This document shows, piece by piece, positions 1,372 to 45,948 of a stretch of DNA of 64,000 nt. This DNA comes from Euryarchaeota archaeon UBA86 (GTDB taxonomy: Archaea; Thermoplasmatota; Poseidoniia; Poseidoniales; Thalassarchaeaceae): positions 46,071 through 110,070 of the forward strand of contig DAQX01000026.1 of assembly GCA_002503055.1 (NCBI GenBank), read 5' to 3'. Under the pieces are notes generated by a model, which saw nothing but the letters and a program-made list of their open reading frames with translations, made no database searches and was not told the origin of the DNA. A program made the position numbers and the translations under genes. Within the stretch, counting starts at the first letter, position 1; every line of letters starts with the position of its first letter.

Positions 1372-2439
1372 GTGTGTGAGAGCGTGACTGGCCTCGCTCT
1401 ATCTTCTGTCTCCTCGTTGAGAAGAGACATTGGAGATCGATGTACGGTTCTCCGAATACATGACGGGCGAGTCTATGCTGGCTCGCAAGAAGGAGTCTTT
1501 GCGTGCTGGAGTGAGGATTCTGGCGAGGCCCTCTGGAGAGTCAAAATGTCTGGTCCTCTCAGTGACATTGATTTTGGAGAAGATAGGGTGTATGTTGCTG
1601 AGTCATCGAAGTTACATTGTCTTGAAAACAGAGGAGGGGAGATTGTCTGGAGCATGGAGTTGGAGGGATCTAGCGATTATGTGATAGTGAATGACGGAGT
1701 CATCTGGGCCACCTCAAGTGTCTACGAGATTGAAATTGGAGACTACACTGAGTCGACGATATGGAAATTCAACAGTTCTGGCGAAGTCGAGAAGTTTTGG
1801 AATATCGACGAGAGGTGTTGGTTTTTGGGCCCATACAATGAGGGTTTGATTTTGGGTCTAGGAAGGCCTAGGTGTGGTGCTCTGAGAGTTCTAGATGATC
1901 TGATAGAGCATCTCGAAGTCGGCGGCAGTCCCGTCACCTGTGGGGCTGGTTTCGATAATCGAATTATTCTCGGCCAATCGGATGGGAGAGTCGCCGATAT
2001 TGGCAACGGTTCGGAGATGATGGGGGATTCGCCAACTAGTGCTGTCTTAGCGATGGATGATGGTGCAATAGCAGGTTTCGAAGATGGTAGAGTCATATCC
2101 AGTGATGGATGGAGTCATAACTCTAGAGGAGGGATCGCATCACTTTCTCTCGGGCCTTATCCAAGGGGTGAAGGGGCCGTTTGGATCTGTTTAGATGGCG
2201 GAGTGACGCTCCTGAACAAATCTACTGGGGACAATCTGCTAGAGTTAGGTCATGAGAGTAAGCTTTGGAAGTCAGATGCTAATGAGAGACTGATTGTGCT
2301 AGGGGATGCGGATGGAATCATTCACTTTGTAGAGGTGAATGTGCTCTCTCGGCGCCTTAGTGCTGACTCGGAGAATTTCGAAGATGATGCCAGGAAGAAT
2401 GAGATGATGGATAAATTAAGGGAACTGCGAAGTGTTTGA
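1372..2439 (+). CDS. PQQ-like/WD40-like beta-propeller repeat protein with a charged C-terminal tail
   Basis: A 355-aa ORF with repeated segments of the form 'G.V.A....G..lW' (VYAGSQEGVFACWSEDSGEALWRV, LHCLENRGGEIVWSM), as in BamB/PQQ propellers. I recognise no specific family. Confidence 0.45.
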   Translation: MCESVTGLALSSVSSLRRDIGDRCTVLRIHDGRVYAGSQEGVFACWSEDSGEALWRVKMSGPLSDIDFGEDRVYVAESSKLHCLENRGGEIVWSMELEGSSDYVIVNDGVIWATSSVYEIEIGDYTESTIWKFNSSGEVEKFWNIDERCWFLGPYNEGLILGLGRPRCGALRVLDDLIEHLEVGGSPVTCGAGFDNRIILGQSDGRVADIGNGSEMMGDSPTSAVLAMDDGAIAGFEDGRVISSDGWSHNSRGGIASLSLGPYPRGEGAVWICLDGGVTLLNKSTGDNLLELGHESKLWKSDANERLIVLGDADGIIHFVEVNVLSRRLSADSENFEDDARKNEMMDKLRELRSV

Positions 2440-2497
2440 GATACAGTGGAAATTAACATTCTATGACCCTTATTTCCGCTGTACTGCTCTAATATCT

Positions 2498-2512
2498 GGA
2501 AAGGTTTATTTA
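2498..2512 (+). promoter_or_regulatory. Archaeal BRE/TATA-like element (GGAAAGG-TTTATTTA) facing the purine-rich tract
   Basis: A purine-rich BRE-like heptamer sits directly 5' of the 8-nt TTTATTTA. The element is 60 nt after the stop of the upstream gene, and no recognisable CDS follows it. Confidence 0.3.
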
Positions 2513-2711
2513 CTGCCGCTTGCCCTGTGAACTTTGCCGCTTCTTTGAAGCCGGTGTGGGGGCGCTTCGGCGCGACCCGCGGGCCACAGAAACCGAGCCG
2601 CGAAAAAGCGGCGGTAGAACCCGAGATCTGGAAAGAGAACGGGAGATAGTCGGAACGCCATGTGGGCGGGAAGACGACGGGAGAACCGAAGAGGACGAAG
2701 GTGGAGAGAAC

Positions 2712-2745
2712 TGGAGAGAACTGGACGCAAGGAAAGGGAAGGAAA
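2712..2745 (+). repeat. 34-nt perfect direct repeat, copy A (TGGAGAGAACTGGACGCAAGGAAAGGGAAGGAAA)
   Basis: Read directly from the sequence and identical to 2901-2934. Copy A is flanked by 10-nt tandem duplications: AGAGAACTGG x2 at 2705-2724 and GGGAAGGAAA x2 at 2736-2755. Confidence 0.95.
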
Positions 2746-2900
2746 GGGAAGGAAACCGGAGGAAACGGAGGAGGAAGCTGAGGAAAAGCGAAACCGAACC
2801 GGCAACGGGGAAAACCAAAACCGAGGCAGAGTACTATCCCGAAGAGATACGCGTGGAAGGGGAAAAGAGATTGGAACTGGAAACGGCGTGGGGAACAAAG

Positions 2901-2934
2901 TGGAGAGAACTGGACGCAAGGAAAGGGAAGGAAA
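2901..2934 (+). repeat. 34-nt perfect direct repeat, copy B
   Basis: Identical to 2712-2745 and 189 nt downstream of it. Confidence 0.95.
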
Positions 2935-3311
2935 CGGAGGGAAACACGAGCGAACAAGGGCGGAGAGATCCGTGGAGGAAGTTGTATCGGACCGTGGAGA
3001 GAAATGGTGAGAATAGCCAGGAGAGGAAACGGAGAACGCGAAGAGGGAGGCGACCCCCTTGGAGAGAGAAGATGAGTGAAGTGAGAAATCACAGAGCGCG
3101 ACAAAAGAACCCTAGAGGTTCTGGAGGAGTCTACCCGGGGAAACCTGGGCCTTAGGGCCCAGGGGACACCCGGACCCTGCGGAGTAGAACGGAGGGGGGG
3201 AAGCTCCCCCATGTGCTGAACCCCTCCTGACTGCTCCCACCTGATCATCGGCCCATTAGTCCAATCGAAATCTAGCGTAGCATTTCTTGATGCTTGGATA
3301 ATGAGTTGATT

Positions 3312-4913
3312 CTACTCTCTTGGCCCAATCATTTCCTCAGCCCTGACCCATTGAGTAAATTCCTCATCGGTCAACATATCCAATTCGAGAGCGCTTTCCC
3401 TGAGAGTGGTTCCTTTCTCGTGGGCGTTCTTCGCAATCTTAGCAGCATTATCATAGCCGATGTGTGGATTTAGTGCGGTAACCAGCATAAGCGAGTTTTC
3501 TAGATGTCTTGCGATGTTGTCCTCATTGGCCTCTAACCCTGTAACGCACTTATCTGTGAAAGAACGACACGAGTCAGAAAGTAGCCTAATGCTGTGCAGG
3601 TAGTTATGGATCATCATCGGCTTGAACACATTTAGCTCAAAATTACCTTGGCTACCTCCTATTGAGAGAGCCGAATGATTTCCCATCACTTGGCAGCAGA
3701 CCATGGTGATAGCCTCTGACTGAGTTGGGTTGACCTTGCCTGGCATGATGCTAGATCCTGGCTCATTGGCGGGAAGAGCCAATTCGCCAAAACCGCACCG
3801 AGGTCCAGAACCTAGCCATCTGATGTCGTTGGCAATTTTCATCAGCGACACAGCCAGGGCGTTTAGACTGCCTGAAGCAGCCACTATTGCATCGTGAGCG
3901 GCTAGTTGGGCGAACTTATTCTCAGCGCTGACGAATGGCATCTCGGTCTTGTCGGCGATTCTCGCTGCCACCGCGTCAGCAAAGTCGGGATGGGTATTGA
4001 GTCCGGTTCCAACCGCAGTTCCTCCGAGAGCCAATTCAAGCAAGTCCTCAAGCGAATGCTCTAACCTAGAGATATCTGAATTCAACATAGAGACATAGCC
4101 ACTGAACTCTTGGCCCAGCGTAAGCGGTACTGCGTCCATCAGATGCGTTCTTCCAATCTTCACTATTCCAGTGAATCCCTTCGACTTCGCTTCCAACTCA
4201 TCTCGTAGATGTCTGACAGAAGGTAGCAGACGATGATATGTTTCCTCTGCGGCGGCAATATGCATGGCTGTAGGGAAAGTGTCGTTACTAGACTGAGCTC
4301 GGTTGACATGATCATTTGGGTGGACTGGCGTCTTGCTGCCAATGGTTCCGCCTGATATCTCAATGGCACGATTCGCGATGACTTCGTTTGAATTCATATT
4401 GGTCTGGGTTCCTGAACCAGTTTGCCATATTCTGAGTGGGAAGTGCTCATCCAATGAGCCTGATATCACTTCATCACAAGCGCTTGAAATGAGGGAGCCA
4501 ATGTCGGAGTCGAGGGCGCCGAGACTGACATTGGTCTCGGCTGCTGCTTGCTTGAGAATCCCAAAGGCCCGAATGATTGAGCGTGGCATTGTATCGTCTC
4601 CGATATCGAAGTTGATCAGGGACCTCGCTGTCTGAGCCCCATAGTAACGATCGGCTGGGACTTCGACTTCACCCATCGTATCCTTCTCGATTCTGATTGC
4701 GTCCGGTCTGGCCTTGGCACTACGCGAAGAGACAGGAGGGTCTGGTGGTCTCTCATCGGACTCAGAATCTAGTGATTCGTGGATCATTCTGACTATTGTC
4801 GCAGACCTACCGTCCTCTCTTCCCTTGCCGACTTTTCGATCTAACTTACGCGCTGTTTCCTCTGGTATACTGATGCTGATTATTCGACGGTCTCCCGCAC
4901 GGTGCTTTGCCAT
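3312..4913 (-). CDS. fumC: Class II fumarate hydratase with an N-terminal ribbon-helix-helix (CopG/NikR-like) extension
   Basis: It carries the fumarate-lyase signature [16 protein letters not shown], and [25 protein letters not shown] matches the FumC N-terminus. The first ~72 aa ([39 protein letters not shown]) follow a beta-alpha-alpha RHH pattern. Confidence 0.9.
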
Positions 4914-6071: not shown

Positions 6072-6467
6072 CTATGCCACCATTGAACCTGGCAATACTC
6101 CCTTCGGCAGTTCGAGTAGCCTGACTGTGCCGTCTGGATCTAGAGATCCAAGAACTAGGAACTGGGAGACGAATCCGGTTGGTAGAGTCTTGTCACCTAG
6201 ATTTACCGCGCCCACCACTGTACGCCCAATCAATTGCGCTCGTGAGTAATTGGTAATCTGGGCTGAGCTCCACAACTTTCCAATTACAGGGCCGAAGTCA
6301 ACATGGATCTTGTAAGATGGTTTGCGCATCTCGGGGAATTCCTCTACTTCGAGGATAATTCCAGTTCTCAAGTCCATTTCGAAGTACGCGGCCGCTCCGA
6401 TGTATTCCTTCTTGTCGAGTTTCTCAGGATGGTAGGGTTCGCTAGAGTCAATGATATGTTCACTCAT
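6072..6467 (-). CDS. csaA: tRNA-binding domain protein (CsaA/EMAP-like OB fold)
   Basis: KPSYKIHVDFGPVIGKLWSSAQITNY...LIGRTVVGAVNLGDK resembles the CsaA / Trbp111 tRNA-binding domain. Confidence 0.7.
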   Translation of the reverse strand: MSEHIIDSSEPYHPEKLDKKEYIGAAAYFEMDLRTGIILEVEEFPEMRKPSYKIHVDFGPVIGKLWSSAQITNYSRAQLIGRTVVGAVNLGDKTLPTGFVSQFLVLGSLDPDGTVRLLELPKGVLPGSMVA

Positions 6468-7055
6468 TCATTCACCCGTGACATCAGATCTAACGATGAG
6501 GGGTCTCAGGTCAACCCCTGCCTCAACGAAGGCCTCAGCCCCTCCTTCTTCACGATCTAGGATAGTAATGCAGGCGGCTACCTCGCAGCCCATCTCAGTC
6601 AGTCTAGCGGCTGCTTTGAGAGCCGACCCGCCTGTGGTCGTCACATCCTCTAGCAGTACAACTCTGTCGCCCTCGGACAAACTAGAGCCTTCGATTCCCG
6701 GTGGATTACCAGTCTTCCTTCCACCGCGCCCCTTGGGCTCCTTACGAACCATGAAACCGCGTAACTGCGAGCCTTTTCCTGCCTTGGCAATGGCGATCCC
6801 TGTGAGTGGAATTGCACCTAGCTCAAGGCCGCCAACCGCATCTACTCCTCCAATCTGTTCAACCTCATGGTGAATCAATACACCCAGCAGATGAGCACAG
6901 TCCGGATCCATCATCACCGGCTTCATGTCGAAGAAGTGAGGGCTAATCCTTCCACTGGCCAAAGTGAATGGGTCGTCGGGCGAATGGAGGTAGGCTAGTT
7001 CTCTAACACGCTCGACCAGTCGTACCCTCGCCTCGTCTGTATCCATCGTTGCCAT
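6468..7055 (-). CDS. pyrE: Orotate phosphoribosyltransferase
   Basis: The PRPP-binding loop VVLLEDVTTTGGSALKAA is present. The ORF runs to 7232, but the ATG at 7055 (MATMDTDEARV) gives a typical ~195-aa PyrE and removes the overlap with polD. Confidence 0.85.
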   Translation of the reverse strand: MATMDTDEARVRLVERVRELAYLHSPDDPFTLASGRISPHFFDMKPVMMDPDCAHLLGVLIHHEVEQIGGVDAVGGLELGAIPLTGIAIAKAGKGSQLRGFMVRKEPKGRGGRKTGNPPGIEGSSLSEGDRVVLLEDVTTTGGSALKAAARLTEMGCEVAACITILDREEGGAEAFVEAGVDLRPLIVRSDVTGE

Positions 7056-7230
7056 CGGCCTCTTCGGCTCGGCAGGGGTCGGATGAAGGTTCGCCCTGAG
7101 AGGACTATTCAACAGGCACATTGCAGTGAATGTTCTTGGACGGCCAACACCGGTGAGAGAATGTTCCGCAGCGGAGCGTGTTGTGATTAGGGTGGAAAAG
7201 GGGCGTCTCGCAGTATACGATCGGGCTCGC

Positions 7231-10200
7231 ATGGATAGTGAGCGCGATGCTTATCAGAAGCGATTGGATGTTCAAGCGGAAGAGGTCTACCAATTGGCTG
7301 GACAGGCTAGGTCACAGGGCCTAGACTTCTCTGATGATGTTGAGATTCCGCGTGCTGCGGACTTGGCGAGTAGGACTCAAAAATTGCTTGAGGATCCATA
7401 CCTCAAACCTAATCGAGAAAATCCAGATGTGGGCCCAATAGAAATTGAGAGTGAATTACGTGTGTTGCTAAAGTCTTCGGACAGAGAGACTGCAGCAATC
7501 GAAATTGCTCTGAAAGTAGCAAAGAGAATGCACGATCTTACAAGCGATATCGCTCAGGCGATTGATTCCGGCCTCAGGGTTGGTCTTGCAGTCCTAACTG
7601 AGGCAGTTCTGGTGGCTCCACTGGAAGGTATCGGCGAGGTTCGAATAATGAATAACGCCGATGGTTCCGAGTTTCTCTCAATCGACTATGCAGGCCCAAT
7701 CAGAGCAGCCGGAGGAACTGCTCAGGCTCTGGGGGTGCTAATTGGAGATATGATTCGTCGCGAGCTTGGCGTGGGTAGGTATGTTCCAACCACGCCAGAG
7801 GTCGAGCGTGTGAAGGAGGAGTTTGGTCTGTATCGAGTCGGTTTGCAGTACAAGCCACCTCCGGAAGAAATCGAAGTGATTGTTCGTGCCTGCCCTGTGA
7901 TGGTCAATGGAGAGGAGACCGAATCTCAGGAATGTGCAGGATACAAGGAAGTCAGGAACATCGTCAACAAGAACAACACACCTCGGACCAGAATAAGAGG
8001 AGGAGTTATGCTGGTCATAGGTGAGGGTCTTTGCCTCAAGGCTCCAAAAATCCTCAAGCATACAGAGAGGTTAAAGATTCCAGGTTGGGAATTTATCGCC
8101 CAGTTCGCAGGCAAGAGCAAAACCGATTCAGATGAGTCTGAGGAAATCAAACGCAGAGTGATTTCCAAGGTAGACCGATACATGGATGATGTAATTGCAG
8201 GTCGCCCAGTATTCGGTGAGCCTGGGGAGCCTGGTGGATTCAGACTGAGATATGGGAGGAGTCGTGCTACTGGCCTTGCTGCTGCTGGTTTCAACCCCGT
8301 TTCTATGGAAGCCCATGGAGGGTTCATCTCAGTAGGTACGCAACTTAAGACGGAGCGACCGGGTAAAGCATGCGCAGCGACTCCGTGCATCGATTTAGAC
8401 GGCCCAACAGTATTGTTGCGAGACGGTTCTTATCTAAGAATATCAACTATCGAACAGTGGCGAACTTCGTCTACCGAAGTAATTTCAATTTGGGACTCGG
8501 GAGAGGTTTTGTCGGGATTTGGCGAGTTCCTTGAGAATAACAAGGATCTTGTCCCATCTGGATACAATAGAGATTGGTGGGCAGCCGACCTTGCCGATGC
8601 GTTAGACCACCCCGATAAGGTTGAGTCGTTCGCTGCTATGCTAGGTGTAAATCGATCTTCACTACCTCCGGGAATCCCATTCAATGGAGCAATCCAGCGC
8701 GGAGGAGAGAACGATCTTGAGCGTAGTCTGAGAAAGAGAGATTGGCAACTTTACCTGCGTGATATGGAATTGAATTGGGAACAAGCCTGTCAAGCAGTGA
8801 AAGAGTATGGGGCTGCAGTCCCTCCACCGTGGAACTTCTGGTGGTCAGATATGCCGTTGTCATTCGCCCCTCAACTAATCGATGCGTTGTGCCAATCTGA
8901 AATCAATGGTGGGCGACTAAGAATGATTGGTGCTGCATCTGGTTGGTCTCATGACTCTCAATTTGAGAAGATTGATCTGCCAGCGCCTTCGACTGGTGAA
9001 TGGCCGCGATGGACTATGGTGCATGACCATGGGGTTGTCAAGTCCGCGCTGATGACTTTGGGTGTGGAGCATCATCACGATGATGGTGACATCGTGATTC
9101 CGGCCGCTTGGGAAGGATTGCTGGATGGTTTGGGTCTGGAGTTCGCAACGGGTACCATTCGTGTAGCAGTGGATGCAAGTCCTCACATCAGCGATAGATT
9201 ATCGAGAATTGGGGAAGCAACTGATACTATTGCCAAAGAAAATAAGAGGATGGAGGAAATTGAATCGGTTCGCTCCGTGGAAAGAATGCGGGCAGAAACT
9301 GCTGCCCGACAAAGAGGATTGGGGATTTCAGAAACTGATACAGAAGGCAGAGCTGCAGCAGAAGCAATCGAAGATCCTGGGCCTGATGATCCGTCCTTGC
9401 TCAAGGCCGCCTATACAATACTCGATGATCATGAGGTTGAGAGGGCGTTGTGGTTGGTCAGAAGGTTGTCCAATCTGAGATGGGAGGACTCCGTCCCATG
9501 CAGGGTTGGCTCCAGAATGGGTCGGCCGGAGAAAGCAGGGGTTCGCGAGATGAAACCAATGGTTCACGCTCTCTATCCAATAGGGGAGAGTGGTGGTCCG
9601 CAACGGCTCTTGGGCCAAGCCGCAGGAAAGGGTTCAATCCGTGTTGAGATGGGTCCACGGATATGCGACAAATGTGGCAAGGACACGCCCCATCTAAGAT
9701 GTCATCACCGTTTATCCGAGAGTGTTGAAGAATGCGGAGGTAGGACCAGTGTCCGGAAGAGAAGGGGCGACCACAATAGAAGGAGGATGGGTCAGAGGAC
9801 TAGCGTTCCTTTGAGTAAGATTGTAGAGACAAAGAGGAGGGCTTTGGGACTAAACAGAGTACCTGATAGAATCAAGGCGGTAAAGGGATTGATATCTATC
9901 GCTCAGACGCCTGAGCCTATCGAAAAAGGTATACTCCGGGCTAGGCATGGGGTGTCTGTATTCCGTGATGGGACATCTCGATACGATATGAGTGATGTTC
10001 CATTGACTCATTTCAAGCCAAGTGAGATAGGCACTCCTTGGCGGCGTCTATCTGAGTTAGGTTACTCTCACGATGTCTTCGGCGAGGCTTTGACCTCAGA
10101 TGAACAGATGTTGGAGTTGCTACCACAGGATTTTGTAGCATCTAGGTCTGCTAGACAGCATCTGCTTTCAACATGCCAATTCGTAGATGATTTGTTAATC

Positions 10201-11184
10201 AGATTCTACAAGATGAAGCCATTCTACGAAGCCACAGAAGAGTTGGATTTAGTTGGCCATCTTGGAATCGGACTGGCACCTCATACATCCGGTGGTGTGT
10301 TGTGTAGAATCATCGGTTGGACCGATGCTTCTGCTGGATACGCGCATCCCCTTTTCCACGCCGCAAAGAGAAGGAATTGTGATGGTGATGAGGACAGTCT
10401 AATGATGCTATTAGATGGCCTGCTAAACTTCTCCAAGACGATTTTGCCCTCGGGAAGAGGTGGAAGAATGGATGCTCCGCTGGTTCTGAGCACTAGAATC
10501 GATGCTAGTGAGATCGACAAGGAGGCTCTGAATGTAGACTGTGGATGGTCATACAACAAGGCCTTCTACGAGGGCACGAAGTCACAACCCCATCCTTCCG
10601 AGTTGGAGAATATAGTCGACTTGGTCGAAGGGAGGTTAGGTACTGTTGGCGAGGTTCGCGGCTATGGATGGACTCATGACTCGGGAGAGTTAGATGCGGG
10701 ACCAGCTAATTCTTCCTACAAGACTCTCGAGACGATGGAAGACAAAATGCTCGCGCAGTTGGCCATAGGTCGGCGCTTACGCTCGGTTAGTGCTGCTAGA
10801 GTAGCCTCCCAGGTCATCGAATCTCACTTCCTGCCTGACCTGCGTGGTAACCTAATGGCATTCACTAGACAGAAGGTTCGTTGCGTGAAATGCGGACATT
10901 CGTATCGAAGAATGCCTCTGGCTGGCAAGTGCATCCAGACCACTAGTAGTTCTGGCATAGGACTAGGTTCATCCCATGACGGTGGAACTCTGTGCGGAGG
11001 TAATGTGGTTCTGACCGTGTCCGAAGGTGCGGTTCGCAAATACATTAAGATCACAAGTGAAGTCATGGAGACTTACGGTGTCGACGATTATACCAAGCAG
11101 AGAGTCGGTTGGATGACAGACAGCGTAGATTCTCTGTTCAATGACGACAAGGTTACTGTGATGACTCTCGAGGACTTCATCTAG
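7231..11184 (+). CDS. polC: DNA polymerase II (PolD) large subunit DP2
   Basis: A >1300-aa ORF with DP2-type blocks: GEPGEPGGFRLRYGRSR, RPEKAG...MKP, HTSGGVLCRIIGWTDA, KRRNCDGDEDS and the C-terminal CVKCGHSYRRMPLAGKC...TVSEGAVRKY. I chose the start at ATG 7231 (MDSERDAYQKRL); the ORF is open from 7126. Confidence 0.95.
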   Translation: MDSERDAYQKRLDVQAEEVYQLAGQARSQGLDFSDDVEIPRAADLASRTQKLLEDPYLKPNRENPDVGPIEIESELRVLLKSSDRETAAIEIALKVAKRMHDLTSDIAQAIDSGLRVGLAVLTEAVLVAPLEGIGEVRIMNNADGSEFLSIDYAGPIRAAGGTAQALGVLIGDMIRRELGVGRYVPTTPEVERVKEEFGLYRVGLQYKPPPEEIEVIVRACPVMVNGEETESQECAGYKEVRNIVNKNNTPRTRIRGGVMLVIGEGLCLKAPKILKHTERLKIPGWEFIAQFAGKSKTDSDESEEIKRRVISKVDRYMDDVIAGRPVFGEPGEPGGFRLRYGRSRATGLAAAGFNPVSMEAHGGFISVGTQLKTERPGKACAATPCIDLDGPTVLLRDGSYLRISTIEQWRTSSTEVISIWDSGEVLSGFGEFLENNKDLVPSGYNRDWWAADLADALDHPDKVESFAAMLGVNRSSLPPGIPFNGAIQRGGENDLERSLRKRDWQLYLRDMELNWEQACQAVKEYGAAVPPPWNFWWSDMPLSFAPQLIDALCQSEINGGRLRMIGAASGWSHDSQFEKIDLPAPSTGEWPRWTMVHDHGVVKSALMTLGVEHHHDDGDIVIPAAWEGLLDGLGLEFATGTIRVAVDASPHISDRLSRIGEATDTIAKENKRMEEIESVRSVERMRAETAARQRGLGISETDTEGRAAAEAIEDPGPDDPSLLKAAYTILDDHEVERALWLVRRLSNLRWEDSVPCRVGSRMGRPEKAGVREMKPMVHALYPIGESGGPQRLLGQAAGKGSIRVEMGPRICDKCGKDTPHLRCHHRLSESVEECGGRTSVRKRRGDHNRRRMGQRTSVPLSKIVETKRRALGLNRVPDRIKAVKGLISIAQTPEPIEKGILRARHGVSVFRDGTSRYDMSDVPLTHFKPSEIGTPWRRLSELGYSHDVFGEALTSDEQMLELLPQDFVASRSARQHLLSTCQFVDDLLIRFYKMKPFYEATEELDLVGHLGIGLAPHTSGGVLCRIIGWTDASAGYAHPLFHAAKRRNCDGDEDSLMMLLDGLLNFSKTILPSGRGGRMDAPLVLSTRIDASEIDKEALNVDCGWSYNKAFYEGTKSQPHPSELENIVDLVEGRLGTVGEVRGYGWTHDSGELDAGPANSSYKTLETMEDKMLAQLAIGRRLRSVSAARVASQVIESHFLPDLRGNLMAFTRQKVRCVKCGHSYRRMPLAGKCIQTTSSSGIGLGSSHDGGTLCGGNVVLTVSEGAVRKYIKITSEVMETYGVDDYTKQRVGWMTDSVDSLFNDDKVTVMTLEDFI

Positions 11185-11936
11185 AATCCAATTTCTAGGA
11201 TATTCAGTACCTCGCTCATCCATTTCAGTTTCTCCAGCTTGGCATTCTCATCTGTAATTCCTGACCAACGCCCTACAACATCAGTACGAGTCCCCAGCAT
11301 GGAGATTGATTCTGCAGGAACGCCAATCGAGCGAACAATACAGGCAGCCCTGTCTCCATCGGTGAAACCCCCTGGGTTACTCATCCCTTCAATGGGTGAT
11401 TTGGTTTGATGAGTAAGTACCAAAGGAGGAGGGGTCGCGATGCGCGAGGCGTGTTCTAACAGTGTTGTCCAATCATTTACATTGTCGCCGTGTGCGTGTA
11501 AGAAAATCGGCTTACTACGCTCCACCGCCTCATAGGTTCCTTCTCCTCCATCGGCATCGCTTACAACACAAATTAGTCTCGACCACGCTCTCTCTGCCGT
11601 TGAAGCAGGTAGCATTGAGAAGACTCCTGCAGCCCCGTCAGCGGCTACCAACAAGGAAGGTTGCTCCAGAACTGCCTCAACCTCTTCTGGTTCTACTGCG
11701 GCGCCAAGAATTGCAACTTCGGTCTCGCGTAGAACCAATCTTCGAAATACAGTAGCGACATTGGCGGCTCGTTGCGATCTCTCCCATGACCTGATTTCAT
11801 GGGACTCTACTCGTTGAAGCAACTCTTGTGCGCTGGACAAGTCTTCGTTTGAGTCCCATCCAAAGTGCTTCCTGACATCGGATTGAATGGTGACAAGTCG
11901 AGTGTCCACGGGGTGTAGTTCAGTCGGCTTGTACAT
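11181..11936 (-). CDS. MptE-like 6-hydroxymethylpterin diphosphokinase (DUF115 family)
   Basis: VAILGAAVEPEE...LLVAADGAAGVF...VVSDADGG...FLHAHGDNVNDW matches the DUF115/MptE pattern. I chose the start at ATG 11936 to avoid overlapping priL; the ORF is open to 12029. Confidence 0.55.
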   Translation of the reverse strand: MYKPTELHPVDTRLVTIQSDVRKHFGWDSNEDLSSAQELLQRVESHEIRSWERSQRAANVATVFRRLVLRETEVAILGAAVEPEEVEAVLEQPSLLVAADGAAGVFSMLPASTAERAWSRLICVVSDADGGEGTYEAVERSKPIFLHAHGDNVNDWTTLLEHASRIATPPPLVLTHQTKSPIEGMSNPGGFTDGDRAACIVRSIGVPAESISMLGTRTDVVGRWSGITDENAKLEKLKWMSEVLNILEIGF

Positions 11937-11997
11937 GCGCCTGCTCCAGTAGAAGGACACGGTGAGTGTTGAATAACCCTCGTGAGTATCTGCTTTC

Positions 11998-13170
11998 ATG
12001 CCAATGCCATTGGCCCTTCCCAAAGTCATTGATGAGAGGTTGCTGGCTCGCTATCCATTTATGCCTCAGGGTAGGGAACATATGCGGCAGGTCCTAGAGA
12101 GAAATAGTGTCACAATCGAGGATCTGATTGAGGCCCCCTGGTTGGAAGAAGTAAGGACTAGGGGCAGGCTCAGATTGTTGGATAGTGTAATGCACAAGGA
12201 TGGGGTTGAATCCTCGGCCGAAGTCGATCTATCGACCGAAATTGGCCGGATGACGGAAGTACTGTCCTTTTTGCATGCAATGCTCGTAGTTTGTGCATCA
12301 TTCAACGAGAGGTTACTTGCTCGCTGGGTTGAGGGCGAGGCTAGTAGAGCCGATGCTTTATTCGGAGAAGATTTGGAGAATTTCGAATTAATTGCCTCGT
12401 CATACATTTCCGACATCCGTACTGAGCCACGGCAGGGAAGAGAAGAGCTAGTCTACTGGATTCCAATGGTTGACTTCATCGAACTATGTCCTAGGATTTC
12501 CGGCGCCTACTGGCACTTACCTAATCGCCCAGTTGAATATGGATGGGTGCGCATGGATCCTGCTGTTAGTGAGTCTAGTAGGCAGCGTACTGCAAGACTG
12601 TTGAAGGAGCGAGTCAGAGAGAATCTGACCGACGCTTGTATTGAAAGGATGAATCGAATGAGTGAGGAGTTTGCTGCTTTGTTTTCGGAGCCAGTGGATA
12701 GGATTACCTCGTTGCTCTCCGAGCAGGTTCAAGCAGAGATGCCGATGTCGGCGGCAGTCAGAGAGGATTGGCCGCCATGCTTCGAATCTGCAGTATCTGA
12801 ACTGAACCAAGGTGTCAATGTCAACCATGTCGGTCGTGTTTTCCTAGCGGCATTCTCAAAATCGATTGGACTTAGTCCGGAACAGACTTGTTCGTTCTTC
12901 GCTAATGCTCCCGACTATAGCGCTGAGACGACCGGATACCAAGTCAATCAGATATACGAGCGTGATTACACTCCACATGGCTGCGCGGCTCTCAAAACTT
13001 CGGCCCGGTGTCCTGTACAGCCAGGTGACGATAGGCTCTGTGATCAGGAGTGGTTGACACACCCTCTGAAGTATATTCGAGCCAAGCAAAGAAGTCGTTT
13101 CAGAGAGAGTTCGCAAGGCAGTCAAGAGTCTGAAGTTGTCGAGAGAGAGCCCGAGACGGCCAATTCTTGA
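11998..13170 (+). CDS. priL: DNA primase large subunit PriL
   Basis: The N-terminus reads YPFMPQGREHM. The C-terminal Fe-S domain pattern is WPPCFESAVSEL..GVNVNHVGRVFLAAFSKSIGLS...YQVNQIYERDYTPHGCAALKTSARCP. Confidence 0.8.
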   Translation: MPMPLALPKVIDERLLARYPFMPQGREHMRQVLERNSVTIEDLIEAPWLEEVRTRGRLRLLDSVMHKDGVESSAEVDLSTEIGRMTEVLSFLHAMLVVCASFNERLLARWVEGEASRADALFGEDLENFELIASSYISDIRTEPRQGREELVYWIPMVDFIELCPRISGAYWHLPNRPVEYGWVRMDPAVSESSRQRTARLLKERVRENLTDACIERMNRMSEEFAALFSEPVDRITSLLSEQVQAEMPMSAAVREDWPPCFESAVSELNQGVNVNHVGRVFLAAFSKSIGLSPEQTCSFFANAPDYSAETTGYQVNQIYERDYTPHGCAALKTSARCPVQPGDDRLCDQEWLTHPLKYIRAKQRSRFRESSQGSQESEVVEREPETANS

Positions 13171-13213
13171 TATGGGCAGTACCGCATCGCTGTTCAAATC
13201 GGATGAGTAGACC

Positions 13214-14383
13214 ATGGTGAGAACTCTCGTATTGACTGTAGATCGAGACAATGACCTCGGAGTCAAGGCAGGTATCAGAGGTCCCGTGGTAGGTCGTAAG
13301 GCTACTCTTTCGGCAGCCCTCAGACTGGGAATTGCTGACCCCGAGGAGTCCGATACCAATGCAATCTTGGGCGCCTTGCATCATCACGACCAGTTAGTCG
13401 AAGGTGCACAGGGTAATGATGAGGTAGAAATCGCTCTTCTAACCGGGGATGTCAGAGTCGGCCCCCGCAGTGACCGTGCTATTGCAATGCAACTCGATGA
13501 GGTGATTCAGGAGTTTCAGCCCGACTCTGCGGTTTTAGTTACAGATGGAGCGGACGATGAAGCATCTCTTCCCATAATCACATCTAGAGTTAGGGTTGAT
13601 CATGTCGAAAAGGTGATTGTGAGACAATCAAAGGGCATTGAGAGTACTTACTACTACATTGCCAAGGCTATTGATGATCCACGCTGGAGAGCTCGTCTAC
13701 TAGTCCCCGTGGCAGTATTCCTGATGATTTTTGGCCTGGGCCTAATTCTGCCAAACGGAGCGGCTCTAATCGGAGCCATGCCCCTTGTCGTTGGAATCTG
13801 GCTTCTGGCAAAAGGACTAGGTTGGGAGAGGCAGTTTGACCGTCTGATGATTGATATGAGAGAAAGTGCCACAGGAGGTATCTGGTCCTCATTGTTATGG
13901 GGTCTGTCCATTGTCTCGGTGTTGCTATCGGTTCTGACTGCGTATCAGGTGTTCTCGTCCAGTACTTCTGAGATAGCCGACTATGTAGCTGATTTGGGTT
14001 CTGAATTCGATGTAGATGCAGTCAATCGAGATATTGCTGTTTGGGCGATAGCGATTAATGAGGCCCTTACATGGATAGTTGTTGCAACATTCTCATTCAT
14101 GTTGTCCCTTGGTGTACTGCGCTGGAAAGAGGGTTCATTCACCGGACGAAGCGTGCTATTGTTAGGGCTGGGAGCGGTTGTTTACACCTTTACCAAAGCT
14201 GCTTTGGTCGTCATACTGGTAGAGATGGGTGGGTCGGATTTCAGTCTAGACTATCAGAGCGTTAGCGATACTTGGTTCACACCCGTGTTCACCATAGTTC
14301 TGTACTACCTACTGAGAACCGCGGTGATGTCGGTAACCGAAGACGAAGGAATGTCTGGAGAGGAGCGTTTCTGGGGTGTCTGA
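13214..14383 (+). CDS. DUF373-family archaeal integral membrane protein
   Basis: A soluble N-terminal segment (LVLTVDRDNDLGVKAGIRGPVVGR...LGIADPEESDTNA) is followed by about 6 predicted TM helices. I recall this pattern from DUF373. Confidence 0.5.
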   Translation: MVRTLVLTVDRDNDLGVKAGIRGPVVGRKATLSAALRLGIADPEESDTNAILGALHHHDQLVEGAQGNDEVEIALLTGDVRVGPRSDRAIAMQLDEVIQEFQPDSAVLVTDGADDEASLPIITSRVRVDHVEKVIVRQSKGIESTYYYIAKAIDDPRWRARLLVPVAVFLMIFGLGLILPNGAALIGAMPLVVGIWLLAKGLGWERQFDRLMIDMRESATGGIWSSLLWGLSIVSVLLSVLTAYQVFSSSTSEIADYVADLGSEFDVDAVNRDIAVWAIAINEALTWIVVATFSFMLSLGVLRWKEGSFTGRSVLLLGLGAVVYTFTKAALVVILVEMGGSDFSLDYQSVSDTWFTPVFTIVLYYLLRTAVMSVTEDEGMSGEERFWGV

Positions 14384-14818
14384 TTAGGTCTCGAATGTCG
14401 ATTCCATCATACATGCAGGGCATGTTACATTGATTGGCCTAATCTCTGGAATTGCTAGGGCTGCTCTGCAGTTAGGGCAAGTTATGGCTTGAGTGGCGTC
14501 CTTCTGTCGATCCAATCCTACATGACTTGGATCATACCTGAATCGATATCTATGAGAGTTATCTAAAAACTGCGGACTGCCTTCCTTTTCCTTCTTCGGA
14601 CGGCTAAAAATAGATTTTCTCTTTGGTGGCTCGGGAGTGTTTTCCTCGGTTGCTTGAAGGTTGTTGTTGAAACCATCTCCTTGGAAGGCATCGACCTGTG
14701 ATTGGATCTCTTCAACACTCATTCCCAACTCTCTGGATGCCTTATCGATTGCCAAATTCCTCTCATATTCAGATAGCCCGACGAAGTGCTGTAGAATAAC
14801 TGCGGGAATTCTCGACAT
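14384..14818 (-). CDS. Hypothetical zinc-ribbon protein
   Basis: The C-terminus has CPNCRAALAIPEIRPINVTCPAC (CxxC...CxxC). The ORF is open to 14896, so the start is uncertain; ATG 14818 leaves room for a promoter shared with nre. Confidence 0.4.
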   Translation of the reverse strand: MSRIPAVILQHFVGLSEYERNLAIDKASRELGMSVEEIQSQVDAFQGDGFNNNLQATEENTPEPPKRKSIFSRPKKEKEGSPQFLDNSHRYRFRYDPSHVGLDRQKDATQAITCPNCRAALAIPEIRPINVTCPACMMESTFET

Positions 14819-14916
14819 CTTTCTCACTCGTCGCAGCGCAATCATCCCTTTGAATGCCGCCATCATTCGTTCGATGAGCAGTATGCCTAAGAGCAATCGA
14901 TTTCGATTCTATCCTG

Positions 14917-16146
14917 ATGTTCCCTGAGTGTATAGACTGCAGGGGCACCAAGGGGTTGTGTGGAATTTCTCCTTGTCCCTTGCTGGCCGAGATCAGGTCC
15001 AAGCTTCCAACTACTGAGTCAAGTAGTGTGAGTGAGTTAGTGGGCCCCAGCCCGCCGTCTATGTTTGTCGGCAGACATGGCTATCCCGATGTTAGAGCCG
15101 GTCCGAGTGCGACCTGGGCTGCCGATGAGAGAGATATCCCGCAACTTGTTAGTGGGGACCCTGCCGATTTATTTGGCAGACCTCTGGAAGAGGTCGCTGC
15201 AAGGCACGCCAATCTGATTACAGGAGGTCAGGTGATGCGAGTCCGTAGTGCTCGAACGCCTGACCAGATGCTGGAGACGACTCAAGAGATTGCAATGGCG
15301 GACAAGAGTGTGGATGTGGAATTGGATTTCGCTCGGCCTATTGCTGTAGGCCGTAATCCTACATTCGATAGTATGAGTACTCCTCTAGGCCCTTCGGGAG
15401 AGGTTCTTCGAGCCGAGGTTGTAGGACATGCGAGTGTGCCACGTAAGGTTGATTCGATTGCAAATGAGAATGATTTGTTGGCCTTTGATGCGATTGATGA
15501 GTTGAGTTATGCGTCGATTGGAGAGGCTCAGATTTCACGTCTACTCTCTGCAGGTCTGCTAGGTAAGTCAGACAAAAGGAAACTAGTTCCTACTAGGTGG
15601 GGAATAACCGCTACTGATGATATGCTCAGTAAGCAGTTATGGGACAAGGTCAGACACTACCCTTCTATAGACAAAGTTCGTGTCTACGAGGCAACTTATC
15701 TTGACAATAGATTCCATGTTATCCTAACTCCGGGACTGTGGGCTTTCCATATGCTAGAGGCTTGGACCCGTGGAAGTGTCTGGACTGGTACAGGAAAGGT
15801 TCTGGGAGACTGGGAGGATCTTGAGCCTCGCAAGGAATATGCTAATCGAATCACGGGTGCCTACTATTCTGCTAGGCTTGGTGTGTTAGAGCATATGGAT
15901 TCAATTGGTCGTTCTGGGGCCTGTCTAATCTGGAGAGATATCGGTCCAGAGTACTGGGCTCCTGTGGGAGTCTGGCTAATCAGGGAGACTGTTCGTCATG
16001 CGATGAATAGTAATCCGAGGGAGTTCGACAATCTAGAGCAGGCGATAGCGTATGTTTCCCCAAGAGTCTCGGCCCCTGATGATTTGCGGAATAGTTGGTT
16101 TGTTAAACGTGGAAGGCAAATGAGACTGGATGCTTTTGCCGCCTAG
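14917..16146 (+). CDS. Nre-family archaeal DNA repair protein (Nre_N/Nre_C, DUF650/DUF651)
   Basis: The N-terminal Cys cluster CIDCRGTKGLCGISPCPLL is typical of Nre proteins, and the length (~410 aa) fits. The C-terminus QMRLDAFAA resembles a PIP box. Confidence 0.65.
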   Translation: MFPECIDCRGTKGLCGISPCPLLAEIRSKLPTTESSSVSELVGPSPPSMFVGRHGYPDVRAGPSATWAADERDIPQLVSGDPADLFGRPLEEVAARHANLITGGQVMRVRSARTPDQMLETTQEIAMADKSVDVELDFARPIAVGRNPTFDSMSTPLGPSGEVLRAEVVGHASVPRKVDSIANENDLLAFDAIDELSYASIGEAQISRLLSAGLLGKSDKRKLVPTRWGITATDDMLSKQLWDKVRHYPSIDKVRVYEATYLDNRFHVILTPGLWAFHMLEAWTRGSVWTGTGKVLGDWEDLEPRKEYANRITGAYYSARLGVLEHMDSIGRSGACLIWRDIGPEYWAPVGVWLIRETVRHAMNSNPREFDNLEQAIAYVSPRVSAPDDLRNSWFVKRGRQMRLDAFAA

Positions 16147-16853: not shown

Positions 16854-19800
16854 TTAGTTCCTACGCCTTCTCGCTCTATCCTCGTTTTCCAATATGGCCT
16901 TAGCAACCTCAGGAGAGTAGCCAAGGTCAGACAGATCTCTGACCTGCTTGTCAGAATCTTCTGCGACATCAATGGTGATGGTCGAGTCACTCATTGTCTG
17001 CTCGACTGACCAAGTCTGGTCCTCCATATGGATACGTGAACGAGTAGTGCGAGCAGATATCACCATGCCCGCAAGGAGCAGTACTACCACGCTTGCAGCC
17101 ATCAATGTCATGAATGAATTACTGCGTAGAGTGTAGAGCAGTCTACCGGTAACTCGGTCATCCTCTAGAGAGTCCATACAACCATCTCCGTCTATGTCCG
17201 ATCCGGAGGAGGAGTCCCAATTGCTAAGGCCCAATGGGCAACTGTCAGATGTGTCAGGAACTCCGTCACCATCATCATCCCAATCCTCAGTTGCATCATC
17301 GCACCCATCTCTGTCGAAGTCTGAAGTCATACTGACAGTCTGAGGGCATGAGTCATGCTCGTCGAATACGCCATCTCCATCATCATCGAAGTCTACTGTA
17401 TCGATACATCCGTCTGAGTCGTAATCCTCCTCTAGAGTTGATACCCAAGTGGAGGTCGGATCTCCCTCGCAGTTGTCGTAAATTGATTCAATTCCGTCAT
17501 TGTCGAGATCTTTGTCCTCCGTGTTATCGTCGCAACCGTCCCCATCACTGTCCATATGTGATTCAGCAATTGCTGAGCTCCTGACACAGGCGTCATCCCA
17601 GTCTAAGTAGCCGTCATCGTCGTCATCGAGGTCTTCGTACTCATCGTGACAGCCGTCTGAATCCCAGTCATTGAGAGGCGTGGAGGTCCATCCGAGCATT
17701 CCAGTAGGGCAGTTGTCATCAATATCCAAGACCTCATCATTGTCCCTGTCAAAGTCCTCGGAATAGTCGTGACAACCGTCTGAGTCGTAATCGCTGGCTG
17801 GCTCTGAGAACCATACTGTCATGCCGGTAGGACACAAGTCATTGAGATCTGGAATCTGATCGTTATCGTCATCTAGGTCCTCAAGGTCATGGCAACCATC
17901 ACCATCGTGGTCAAACAGTAGACTGGTCCACCACGACATCCCTGATGGACATTCATCATCCACATCCAGATAGGGGTCGTTATCGTCATTGTCATCCTCA
18001 TCTGCATCTCGACATCCGTCGTTATCATTGTCTTCTGAAATTCCGGACCAGTACTGTGCTCCGTTTGGACACATGTCGAGGTGATTCGCGACCCCGTCAC
18101 CGTCGTTATCGGGATCCTCGTGCACATCGTCACAACCGTCATTGTCGAGGTCGATGTGCTCACCCATGTAGCCAGACGGGCAAGAGTCGTCGACATCTGG
18201 ATAGTCATCGTTGTCGTCATTAAGATCCTCAGTGGAGTCTCTGCAGCCATCGCCATCGTGGTCGGTGTCTACATCCGAGTACCAACCGGACTCACCAAAC
18301 TGACAGTCGTCATTGTAATCGAGAACTCCATCACCATCATCGTCATTCCAGTCTCCTTGATTGACTAGTTCGACTAGGAAAGTCTTGGTGGCGGAGGCTT
18401 CTTCCTTGCTGGACGAGGTCACAAAGACGGAGAGTTCGAAACTCTGATCCTCATTCACATCCTGTAGATCTGGGGCGCGGATGAATAAATTGAGATCTGC
18501 AGTAGATCCTTCGACAAGAGTTGTTGTGCTCTGATATGTATTCGAGAATCCAACTTCTAATTGCCAGTGATCAGGAGCATCAGAGGTGTCAGCTACAACA
18601 ATATCGCTGCCTCCGGGTATCTTGATTCCTCTCAACAGCATTCCGACTTCAGCAGACTGTCCGGGCTGGAATGTAATCTCATCATCCATTCCCGGGTCAA
18701 GTTCGATTGCCATGTTGTAGACATTCTCGGACCACATGCAGACATCCCACTTGTCCTCAGAGGTGGTGTCCTCAGAACAATCAGGGGTCGTCCAGATGAT
18801 GTCCCGGTTGGGCCAGTCGAAGTTGACTATTGGTTGCGAACTGGAGTCCAGTCCGGAGCCAAACACGCCCATCAGATTGTCATTGCTGGTAGTGATTACG
18901 CGAGTGTTGATGACACCGTACGCCTGGTCGAGCATTCTACCCAGAGGCATTTCACCATCAACCAACTGAGGAGAGAGGATTCTTGTCCACCTCAACTCAA
19001 CTCTACTGTTCTCATCATCGGTGTTCGGAGTGGACTCGAACCATGTGATGTGTATTGAGCCATCATTGTCGAAGTCGACTCTCGGATTAGAACCCCAAGT
19101 CATGTCAGAGCCCAGTACTGGAGAGTCCGAAACTACGGCGACCTCACTCATGTCTAGGCCGTCAGCCTCGCCGTCGAGTACTCCTGCTCGGTCGAGATCA
19201 ATCTGCATATAGTGGAGTTGTGATGGGCCGACCTTGCTAGGAATAACTGAGCGACCGTCGACCCAGACGACATGGATATTGCCAGCATCGTCGACATTGA
19301 CATCGGGGCTGGAACTCCAGCCATGTCCGTTGGTAAGTCTAGTGTCGTTGACTAGAACGAAGTGCCCGATAGTGCCCCATCCACCTCCGTCTTGCCAGAC
19401 ATAGTCCAATGAGGGTCCGATGTCCTCGACATACTGTCCCGTGACAGGATCAATGGATGTGGCTGGATCGCCTGGTTGCCAGGTGGACCGTGGATTGTTC
19501 AGAAGTGAGTATGGATTGAGTACAGTCAGGAAGGTCTCAGTGGAGCCTGTTGCCGTTGTTAGGGCTATTATTGACTGCACTAGAGCCTGCATTTCCTCAG
19601 TATAGTTGGCAAGTGGGATTGACACATCGTCTATCCAAGCAGAATCGCTTCCAGAACTGACACTTCCATCCTTGACATAGGTCCATTTCAGAGTGTGTTG
19701 ACCCAAAGATACTGGTGTCGAGAAATTACCACTTTGAGTGCCGGACCATTGCGCTAGTTGTACCCCATCAATAGAGAAGGTCAGGAAGTCGAAGTTGGCC

Positions 19801-35799: not shown

Positions 35800-35873
35800 T
35801 GGAGCACGGGCCGGGATTTGCACCCGGGTCCACGGATCTGCAGTCCGTTGCATAGCTACTCTGCCACCCGTGC
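35800..35873 (-). tRNA. tRNA-Cys (anticodon GCA), with genomically encoded CCA
   Basis: Folded by hand. The acceptor stem GCACGGG/CCCGTGC has 7 perfect pairs. U8 is present and the D arm is GCAG..TGC. The anticodon arm is ACGGA-CTGCAGA-TCCGT. The variable loop is 4 nt. The T arm is CCGGG-TGCAAAT-CCCGG. The discriminator is U73, the Cys identity element, followed by CCA. Confidence 0.85.
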
Positions 35874-45725: not shown

Positions 45726-45948
45726 TGTATATTCTCCTTAGGCTCTCGGCCCCACTTTCGGGGCCTCGCTCCCGGTTTTCGCCAATTGGCGGTTCGGTGG
45801 ATGGGCGCAAAACGCCCGCGAGTGTGGCAGAGTACCTGCAATCCGTGCGACTCGGGTACCCTTCATGAACGCTACTGTTTGGTTAGTCGACTATTATCGA
45901 TAGTAGATGTTCGCGAGGAATTAAGGTACTCGGCGCCAATCGCATTGC

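Follow-up and report, generated by a model that had tools for sequence, protein, structure and literature searches.

To our knowledge, very few large conserved noncoding RNAs have been described in archaea beyond rRNA, RNase P RNA and signal recognition particle (SRP) RNA. Uncultured so far, the marine Group II archaea (Poseidoniales) rank among the most abundant surface-ocean microbes. The described RNAs that come closest to the element considered here include the sponges CsrB/CsrC and RsmX/Y/Z of bacteria, which work by binding many copies of one protein, and OLE, GOLLD, ROOL and raiA, which are large conserved RNAs of non-obvious biochemical function (PMC12286853, PMC9723947). Here we analyse a 64-kb stretch from Euryarchaeota archaeon UBA86 (64,000 nucleotides (nt) of contig DAQX01000026.1; below, the window), in which an 872-bp gap between two convergent genes very probably holds a functional noncoding RNA gene, as judged from sequence comparison. 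We consider the best overall explanation, and a probable one, to be a stand-alone noncoding RNA gene read from the plus strand, with folded ends, a modular purine core and a predicted promoter of its own. An earlier reading of this DNA, made from the sequence only, had proposed an undescribed plus-strand RNA of about 0.75 kb with structured ends and a purine-rich core; synteny, constraint and covariation all argue for that proposal.

The gap spans window positions 2440-3311. It is bordered at 2439 by the end of a plus-strand gene that encodes a PQQ-like beta-propeller protein (Pfam PQQ_2) and at 3312 by the end of fumC, which is read from the minus strand. This is the longest gap free of open reading frames (ORFs) in the window, the next genuine gap being about 220 bp; the gene and ORF positions bear out the convergent arrangement, the spacer length and the next-longest gap as first described. 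A rival gap of 608 bp at 45726-46333, present in a crude gene call, was rejected; it contains a 156-aa ORF that leaves about 220 bp. The composition of the gap is extreme. An exact recount of 2641-3120 (480 nt) returned the same 38 T as the sequence-only reading, along with 189 G, 180 A and 73 C. Measured in 300-nt segments, the purine fraction peaks at 0.80 in the gap against a mean of 0.50 (sd 0.05) over the 64 kb, and elsewhere it never exceeds 0.68, leaving the gap as the sole strongly purine-skewed tract. Across 500 nt the GC skew is about +0.44 and the AT skew reaches +0.75, at a G+C content of 0.55-0.60.

Relatives with a similar tract between the propeller gene and fumC were found in about 70 marine archaeal contigs. 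Searching species-representative genomes with the propeller protein gave one relative, the metagenome-assembled genome 'Euryarchaeota archaeon UBA220' (L001), whose gene order is identical. L001 carries two runs of N, one at about 6200-6500 in the propeller gene and one at 8020-8408 in the RNA gene, where part of the purine core is unreadable. Looking up the exact protein sequence of the window fumC led to ten marine contigs that are nearly identical, several with a TARA label. We also used a 296-aa minus-strand pseudo-protein from the gap as a query against 5.8 billion predicted proteins, which produced 137 matches down to about 40% identity, including records named 'Candidatus Poseidoniales archaeon' and 'marine group II/III euryarchaeote'. 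In the DNA of the distant matches the order is always fumC, gap, propeller gene, M32 peptidase and VIT1. A further 61 metagenome loci were recovered by an exact invariant 25-mer (window 2553-2577); wherever they extend far enough, the element is preceded by the propeller gene on its own strand and followed by fumC on the other. The order of propeller gene, element and convergent fumC is thus shared by L001, L003-L022, L086-L088 and the 61 metagenome loci, and the sole exception to synteny is a short contig in which neither neighbour is detectable. The 25-mer was not found in a viral contig collection. The most divergent pseudo-protein matches also carry it exactly and did not widen the known range, which is the clade carrying the exact 25-mer. 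Two short database contigs examined as a possible source of expression evidence are metagenome scaffolds, not metatranscriptome assemblies. This distribution suggests that the element is confined to a clade within the marine Group II archaea (Poseidoniales).

The element is also the best-conserved part of its neighbourhood. Between the window and L001 nucleotide identity is 96.5% for the element, 88.8% for the M32 peptidase gene and 81.7% for the propeller gene. Five lineages further removed retain 82-94% identity to the window in the 5' and 3' domains of the element, compared with 74-81% for fumC, 72-81% for the M32 gene and 60-67% for the propeller gene. Judged by these identities, the element is under stronger purifying selection than the adjoining housekeeping genes.

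The alignments of these relatives predict an RNA of about 710-760 nt, running from about 2536 to 3243 or slightly past. It would consist of a 5' domain at about 2536-2675 (about 140 nt, five hairpins or helices), a purine-rich tract at about 2676-3100 and a 3' domain at 3106-3243 (about 140 nt), in which a hairpin precedes a nested unit of three helices and a terminal unit of two. The features of the locus are as follows.

2445-2484, no strand: inverted repeat ACAGTGGAAAT ... ATTTCCGCTGT, just past the propeller stop and upstream of the promoter
2498-2512, plus strand: BRE/TATA-like element GGAAAGG-TTTATTTA (BRE, transcription factor B recognition element), with the TATA-like box at 2505-2512; predicted promoter
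2536-3243, plus strand: conserved RNA body, with predicted start G2536 and last invariant motif CTGCTCCCACCTG at 3231-3243
2550-2587, plus strand: 5' helix capped by the GCGC-UUCG-GCGC hairpin (2562-2573); 14 pairs, 99.6% paired in 48 distinct sequences
2593-2617, plus strand: hairpin CCG-GCCGC-GAAAAA-GCGGC-CGG, with compensatory changes G-C to C-G (14 sequences) and C-G to U-A (5)
2620-2643, plus strand: helix CCCG/CGGG around an inner stem (2627-2629/2634-2636) that is compensated at two pairs
2649-2675, plus strand: hairpin GUC...CGCC-AUGUG-GGCG...GAC, 100% paired and nearly invariant
2701-2757, plus strand: purine module 1, GUGGAGAGAACUGGAGAGAACUGGACGCAAGGAAAGGGAAGGAAAGGGAAGGAAACC, with direct and 10-nt tandem repeats; 84% purine
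2799-2808, plus strand: hairpin CCG-GCAA-CGG within the purine-rich region, CCC-UUCG-GGG elsewhere; two pairs compensated
2899-2943, plus strand: purine module 2, a shorter copy of module 1 with an exact 22-nt match to it
2994-3034, plus strand: degenerate third module, GUGGAGAGAAAUGGUGAGAAU...AGGAGAGGAAACGGAG, with 3 mismatches, at a site where relatives carry a complete module
3106-3122, plus strand: hairpin AGAAC-CCUAGAG-GUUCU, with 3 of 5 pairs compensated (for example G-C in 26 sequences, A-U in 11)
3125-3178, plus strand: nested 3' helices, AGGAGUCU/GGACCCU at 3125-3132/3172-3178, GGG/CCC at 3137-3139/3169-3171 and CCUGGGCC-UUAG-GGCCCAGG at 3144-3163
3181-3237, plus strand: terminal 3' domain, GGAGU/GCUCC at 3181-3185/3233-3237 around a G-run/C-run helix at 3189-3198/3221-3232, with invariant loop CUCCCCCAUGUGC
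3244-3311, plus strand: poorly conserved tail up to the fumC stop, with a possible stem AGCAU-UUCUUG-AUGCU at 3279-3294 and a short U-rich run

We evaluated covariation in two alignments, A1 for the 3' domain (window 3078-3255) and A2 for the 5' domain (2533-2857; 48 distinct sequences in the helix counts), using as controls partners slid by 1-3 columns and 500 shuffles. In the 3' domain, 97.9% of cells are paired over 38 consensus pairs, of which 10 are compensatory compared with 0-4 after sliding. The 5' domain has 76 consensus pairs with 98.3% of cells paired, and 7 of the 76 are compensatory compared with 1-4. The covariation score was reached by none of the 500 shuffles in either domain. 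Both end domains, where the sequence-only reading had placed its hairpins, therefore contain compensatory pairs, 17 in all, which is more than the shifted-partner controls give.

The individual helices differ in what they contribute. The helix at 2550-2587 is nearly invariant, with one G-C to G-U change, and is compatible with the structure and uninformative; the loop of the helix at 2620-2643 takes an 8-nt insertion in six lineages. Within the nested 3' unit, helices 3 and 4 of the 3' domain are compensated (C-G in 26 sequences, U-A in 8, U-G in 4), as are four pairs of the terminal 3' domain (A-U 26/G-C 12; G-C 26/A-U 12; G-C 25/U-A 9; C-G 26/G-C 5). In that domain the window copy has one local A-C mismatch, CGGAGGGG compared with CGGGAGGG in close relatives. 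It falls at 3190-3199, in an otherwise covarying helix, where the window reads CGGAGGGGGGG and the closest relatives, L003 and L006, read CGGGAGGGGGG; either true variation or a misassembled G-run could account for it. The tail at 3244-3311 varies by lineage in sequence and length, only a GCGKAGCRUUUY block recurs in it, and the 3' end of the RNA may lie within it.

Several of the hairpins proposed at the outset recur in this consensus. GCGC-UUCG-GCGC (2562-2573) and GCCGC-GAAAAA-GCGGC (2597-2612) are present and kept in relatives, and the stems at 3106-3122 and 3144-3163 are present and supported by covariation. Two others, at 3134-3149 (with a GAAA loop) and 3194-3210, can form in the sequence but fare poorly in the alignment, where 155 of 500 shuffles reach the observed value and single pairs have 9-14 broken cells; covariation favours the competing helices 3137-3139/3169-3171, 3144-3151/3156-3163 and 3193-3198/3221-3226. 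The stretch 3134-3163 has two mutually exclusive folds that share 3144-3149, the CCCGGG-GAAA-CCUGGG hairpin and the 8-bp CCUGGGCC-UUAG-GGCCCAGG stem. The 8-bp fold carries the covariation; the CCCGGG-GAAA-CCUGGG fold is still 96% compatible across relatives and may be an alternative conformer. A long-range helix between the 5' leader and 2880-2896, suggested by the alignment fold, was rejected with 6 and 14 broken cells at two pairs, and on our reading of the alignment a local hairpin at 2539-2551 fits the variation better. A terminal helix joining the two ends (2553-2564/3232-3242) is possible and invariant, so that covariation is silent on it.

Loops and stems are exchanged as units among the relatives. 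GCCGC-GAAAAA-GCGGC becomes GCCCC-GAAAGA-GGGGC, CCG-GCAA-CGG becomes CCC-UUCG-GGG, and CCUGGGCC-UUAG-GGCCCAGG becomes CCCGGGCC-GAGA-GGCCCGGG, with a GAAA loop also occurring there. After 3171, seven sequences have an additional GAAA-loop hairpin of 19 nt, itself containing compensated pairs. The exchange of a GNRA loop for a UUCG loop points to selection on RNA. As for the strand, 612 G-U cells in the helices would be A-C on the minus strand, and the alignment folds are more stable for the plus strand than for its reverse complement (-111.9 compared with -101.4, and -161.7 compared with -126.4). The single-sequence folding z-score is only -1.9 and is unconvincing by itself. Together these data indicate that the element behaves as a structured RNA read from the plus strand.

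The long ORFs of the gap raise the question of a protein gene, either the 211-aa E/R/K/G-rich ORF of the plus strand (2520-3155), which the sequence-only reading had offered as an alternative, or a 296/308-aa P/S/F/L-rich ORF of the minus strand. All five ORFs listed in that reading are present, and long ORFs occur in several frames. Its statement that three plus-strand and three minus-strand frames are free of stops in 2641-3120 holds for one frame per strand; the remaining four contain 1-4 stops. In public gene calls the locus carries a 296-aa product, listed as a hypothetical protein, and this product has the 137 database 'homologues' mentioned above, some with full-length coverage. It covers window 2322-3212 on the minus strand, runs across the RNA gene and shares 118 nt with the end of the propeller gene.

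The pattern of variation speaks against either protein. In alignments of 49 sequences for the 5' domain and 39 for the 3' domain, the three phases hold similar numbers of variable columns (32/37/39, p = 0.70, and 25/26/29, p = 0.85), and the 3-nt periodicity expected of coding sequence is not seen. Indels within the conserved parts are mostly of 1, 2, 8, 19 or 25 nt, in combinations that differ among lineages, and those of 1 and 2 nt fall within the best-conserved parts. A G-to-A change in L001 at the position of window 2902 creates a TAG within the 211-aa frame, and the ATG of a 116-aa ORF is TAG in other lineages. The called 'proteins' range from 163 to 341 aa with partial coverage, a Pfam search of three ORFs from the gap gave no family match, and coding would leave the compensatory base-pair changes unexplained. 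The frames are open because of composition, since few T on one strand make stop codons rare. Even phases, frame-breaking indels and the TAG in L001 thus refute the charged 211-aa protein, and a protein gene of either kind is the least credible of all the explanations considered. On this pattern of variation the element is non-coding and untranslated, and the cluster of 137 pseudo-proteins looks like mis-annotation from stop-codon scarcity. The earlier remark that T is avoided at synonymous third positions has no meaning in a non-coding region.

Transcription of the RNA from its own promoter is suggested by the sequence just upstream. The BRE/TATA-like motif at 2498-2512, already seen facing into the tract in the sequence-only reading, is conserved in relatives; the box reads TTTATGTA, TTTAAGTG, TTTAATTA or TTTATTTA in 52 of 53 sequences (consensus TTTAWKTR) and has a purine-rich, BRE-like stretch before it. 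Its distance to a conserved CCTG (2524-2527) is fixed at 19 nt in 49 of 52 sequences. Invariant sequence starts at about 2536, some 27 nt past the box centre, and archaeal start sites are expected at about such a distance from the TATA box. Transcription would start about 25 nt past the BRE/TATA-like box, with G2536 as the predicted first nucleotide. A bacterial-type promoter and terminator scan, which is not designed for archaea, found nothing relevant.

The RNA could instead depend on the propeller gene, as a long structured 3' untranslated region of its mRNA or a product processed from it, or could act as a buffer against the collision of convergent transcription. The element always lies behind the propeller gene on the same strand, about 95 nt past its stop, with a partly conserved hairpin between them and no classical terminator detected there by the bacterial-type scan. 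Such dependence sits poorly with a BRE/TATA-like box at a fixed distance just ahead of the invariant start, and with the much weaker conservation of the propeller gene, which evolves fast and whose protein retains just 43-62% identity in the five distant lineages. A mere spacer would need neither a conserved primary sequence nor covarying helices. We therefore regard a dependent RNA as unlikely. The inverted repeat at 2445-2484 keeps only its inner 5-7 bp (GGAAAU/AUUUCC) in all lineages, the outer pairs being paired in 28-45% of sequences; it could be an mRNA 3' hairpin of the propeller gene or a regulator-binding site.

The purine-rich core of the proposed RNA gene is built from a module of about 55 nt with the consensus GUGGAGAGAACYGGAGAGAACUGGACGMAAGGAARGGGAAGGAARGGGAAGGAAR and an internal periodicity of 10 nt. 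It occurs in 1-6 copies among 59 distinct homologues, and total length follows copy number; in relatives, 527-872 nt separate the 5' and 3' terminal motifs. Two good copies and a degenerate third are present in the window, with small conserved hairpins between modules, and no further module copies were found elsewhere in the window. In L046 all four repeat copies after the first share one lineage-specific change. Such shared changes among copies indicate that units of about 110 nt, made up of a module and its small hairpin, were duplicated recently. GGA is very frequent in the element, as its composition predicts, and the repeated unit is the module of about 55 nt, not a loop motif. Module 1 has 63% invariant columns and a mean major-allele frequency of 0.96 (48 distinct sequences), compared with 70% and 0.955 for the folded 5' part. 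Conservation near the level of the folded part argues for constraint on the module sequence, beyond composition.

The core had been described as potentially single-stranded, prone to G-quadruplexes or protein-bound. Predicted pairing probability is indeed somewhat lower in purine-dense stretches (0.30-0.41 compared with about 0.5 elsewhere), but G-quadruplexes are only weakly predicted, their inclusion shifting the predicted energy by 0 to -13 kcal/mol and engaging no more than 14 G positions. Complementary 11-, 12- and 13-mers that could mark targets in trans number 26, 3 and 1 in the remaining 61 kb, compared with about 21, 5 and 1.3 expected, which is chance level.

These features allow us to hypothesise how the RNA might work. 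The folded ends would give it stability, protection and a defined architecture, and the modules, with almost no pyrimidines to pair, would be largely single-stranded. Repeated modules would then be displayed as equivalent sites for a sequence-specific partner, most likely an RNA-binding protein, and the RNA could act as a multivalent scaffold or sponge with a dosage set by module copy number. Reiteration, variable copy number and strict sequence conservation, as in CsrB/RsmZ, favour such a role, which we advance tentatively as the mechanism on this analysis.

A functional DNA element was weighed against the RNA. Homopurine/homopyrimidine DNA could form H-DNA or a triplex, serve as an array of protein sites phased at 10 bp or be part of a replication origin. 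The purine tract does carry 10-bp periodic repeats and many GGAA/TTCC motifs, the upstream inverted repeat is mini-ORB-like (ORB, origin recognition box) in some lineages, and the genes for the DNA polymerase D (PolD) large subunit, the primase large subunit and Nre lie within 13 kb. Recognition of DNA does not predict the covarying hairpins with exchanged tetraloops found inside and flanking the tract, which make the pure triplex or H-DNA role raised by the sequence-only reading unlikely; on a sequence reading, moreover, the purine repeats are not the perfect mirror repeats that classical H-DNA needs. Archaeal origins comprise clusters of ORBs or mini-ORBs flanking an A+T-rich unwinding element, usually beside orc1/cdc6. 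Here the G+C content is high (0.55-0.60) and an A+T-rich unwinding element is lacking, the genes converge on it and do not diverge, ten large ORFs at 6.4-25.7 kb include no Orc1/Cdc6 domain, and only one weak mini-ORB-like inverted pair is present. That repeat reads TCCAGTGGAAAT in some lineages, resembling the Pyrococcus mini-ORB 'TTCCAGTGGAACT' (quoted in PMC1904270), and a single mini-ORB gives no stable Cdc6 binding (PMC1904270). An archaeal replication origin accordingly finds no support, and a DNA-level function of any of these kinds is very unlikely.

Between RNA and DNA stands the possibility that the G- and purine-rich transcript acts through its template as an R-loop, for instance by priming DNA synthesis or marking the locus. 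The skews given above, about +0.44 for GC and up to +0.75 for AT over 500 nt, are of the kind typical of R-loop-forming transcripts, and DNA replication genes are nearby. The elaborate conserved folded ends and the hairpins between modules, however, suggest a free folded RNA; module copy-number variation would also have no obvious role. This makes an R-loop decidedly improbable, if less so than a DNA element.

Membership of a described RNA family was assessed with Rfam 15 (4227 models), applied to the window and to 8 homologous loci at the gathering threshold and to 2300-3450 at E up to 10. The only match in the window was a tRNA at 35803-35873; the best hits in 2300-3450 had E of 6.1-9.7, to unrelated microRNA and small nucleolar RNA models, and the 8 homologous loci gave none. 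A tRNA/tmRNA scan found only the same distant tRNA-Cys. A divergent or expanded RNase P RNA or SRP RNA with a purine-rich insertion would have the right dimensions, given that both conserved ends together measure about 280 nt, near the size of these RNAs, and are conserved above the adjoining protein genes; the strings ACAGAAACCGAGCC and GAGGAGUCUACCC also resemble RNase P motifs. Yet neither model matched the gap at E up to 10 with permissive filters, nor the homologous loci. In archaeal RNase P RNA, helix P4 arises from pairing of the conserved regions CR-I and CR-V; archaeal SRP RNA has Alu-domain helices, conserved internal loops and a helix 8 with a GNAR loop. On a sequence reading, the motif-like strings stand in the wrong order, are not complementary and cannot form a P4 helix, and the second (GGAGUCU) pairs locally with GGACCCU in the consensus structure. 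No SRP helix-8 motif was seen in the sequence. The earlier failure to find an RNase P CR-I motif or an SRP helix-8 motif agrees with both the Rfam result and this reading, and either identity is extremely unlikely.

Several considerations weigh against a stand-alone RNA gene of this design. The transcript, its ends and its abundance are all deduced from sequence. The aligned sequences are related, so that the shuffle control can be beaten without structure, and the slid control and the count of compensated pairs are firmer; many helices are invariant, leaving covariation neutral on them. Predicted pairing of the modules is only moderately below that of the rest of the RNA. Their conserved 10-nt periodicity and strict sequence conservation would also fit a role at the level of DNA or of an RNA-DNA hybrid. 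Finally, the range of the element is bounded by the exact 25-mer search.

The surroundings of the gap hold further observations. Archaeal host signs lie nearby, namely the PolD large subunit, the primase large subunit and Nre; they form a replication/repair cluster at 7126-16146 (PolD large subunit 7126-11184, primase large subunit 11998-13170, Nre 14917-16146), with a DUF373 gene between them. A 1725-aa ORF on the minus strand (16854-22034) has no Pfam match at E up to 1e-5 and would be a very large uncharacterised protein. The tRNA-Cys (GCA) at 35800-35873 on the minus strand (35803-35873 in Rfam) is the only RNA recognised in the window by Rfam or ARAGORN. The neighbouring fumC (3312-4913, minus strand) has an extra N-terminus of about 70 aa with a weak match to a ribbon-helix-helix (RHH, CopG-like) domain (RHH_1, E = 0.003, residues 12-48). 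In L013 (2315-3920) the equivalent part of fumC is called separately, as a 52-aa RHH ORF, and the fumarase behind it has 486 aa. It is unusual for a DNA-binding domain to be joined to an enzyme of the tricarboxylic acid cycle or separated from one.

We found no description of this RNA in the literature searched, which included one preprint check, and it very likely represents an undescribed RNA family. Among the prokaryotic RNA classes described so far, none known to us pairs folded ends with sequence-conserved, purine-only modules in variable number. That an RNA gene some 0.7 kb long is steadier than a fumarase or a core peptidase implies an important unrecognised function in these organisms, and the architecture of the RNA offers a concrete system for multivalent RNA platforms in archaea. 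Public annotation needs correcting, as the locus is listed as a hypothetical protein on the wrong strand. More speculatively than the mechanism above, and doubtful as a whole, this could be the first large 'ornate' archaea-specific noncoding RNA class, a ribonucleoprotein scaffold of the most abundant planktonic archaea in the ocean, whose 1-6 single-stranded purine modules bind and titrate a global RNA-binding regulator or a part of the translation machinery, with a Csr/Rsm-like logic that evolved independently.

Comparison with known RNAs places the element beside several classes and within none of them. CsrB/CsrC and RsmX/Y/Z have their own promoter, many reiterated short purine (GGA) motifs and a motif number that varies between species; the element likewise has a predicted promoter and 1-6 reiterated purine modules set between hairpins. 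Those RNAs are bacterial and shorter (100-400 nt) and carry GGA mainly in hairpin loops, whereas the modules of about 55 nt here are strongly conserved in sequence and lie mostly outside hairpins. We know of no CsrA-type partner in archaea, and the CsrB/Rsm models of Rfam do not match, so the resemblance is one of logic and not of family membership. Eukaryotes too use reiterated, often purine-rich modules as multivalent protein-binding platforms, as in the GGAAU repeats of satellite III, the A-repeat of Xist and NORAD. These long noncoding RNAs belong to another domain of life, share no homology with the element, are much longer and lack compact covarying ends around their modules. The RNase P and SRP (7S) RNAs of archaea are likewise structured, conserved above most protein genes and about the size of both folded ends combined, but they are universal whereas the element is lineage-restricted, their Rfam models are unmatched and their defining motifs are absent here.

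OLE, GOLLD, ROOL and raiA share with the element a length of several hundred nt, discovery by comparative genomics, conservation, many covarying helices and restriction to particular lineages. They differ in being bacterial or phage-borne, in having Rfam models, none of which matches here, and in being densely paired throughout; the element comes from archaea and, over roughly half of its length, consists of a purine tract that has little capacity to pair and varies in repeat number. It belongs to none of OLE, GOLLD, ROOL, raiA and Csr/Rsm and would represent a new class among the large noncoding RNAs of archaea. In working logic its closest counterparts are the bacterial Csr/Rsm sponges, and in its standing as a large, conserved and enigmatic RNA they are OLE, GOLLD, ROOL and raiA.

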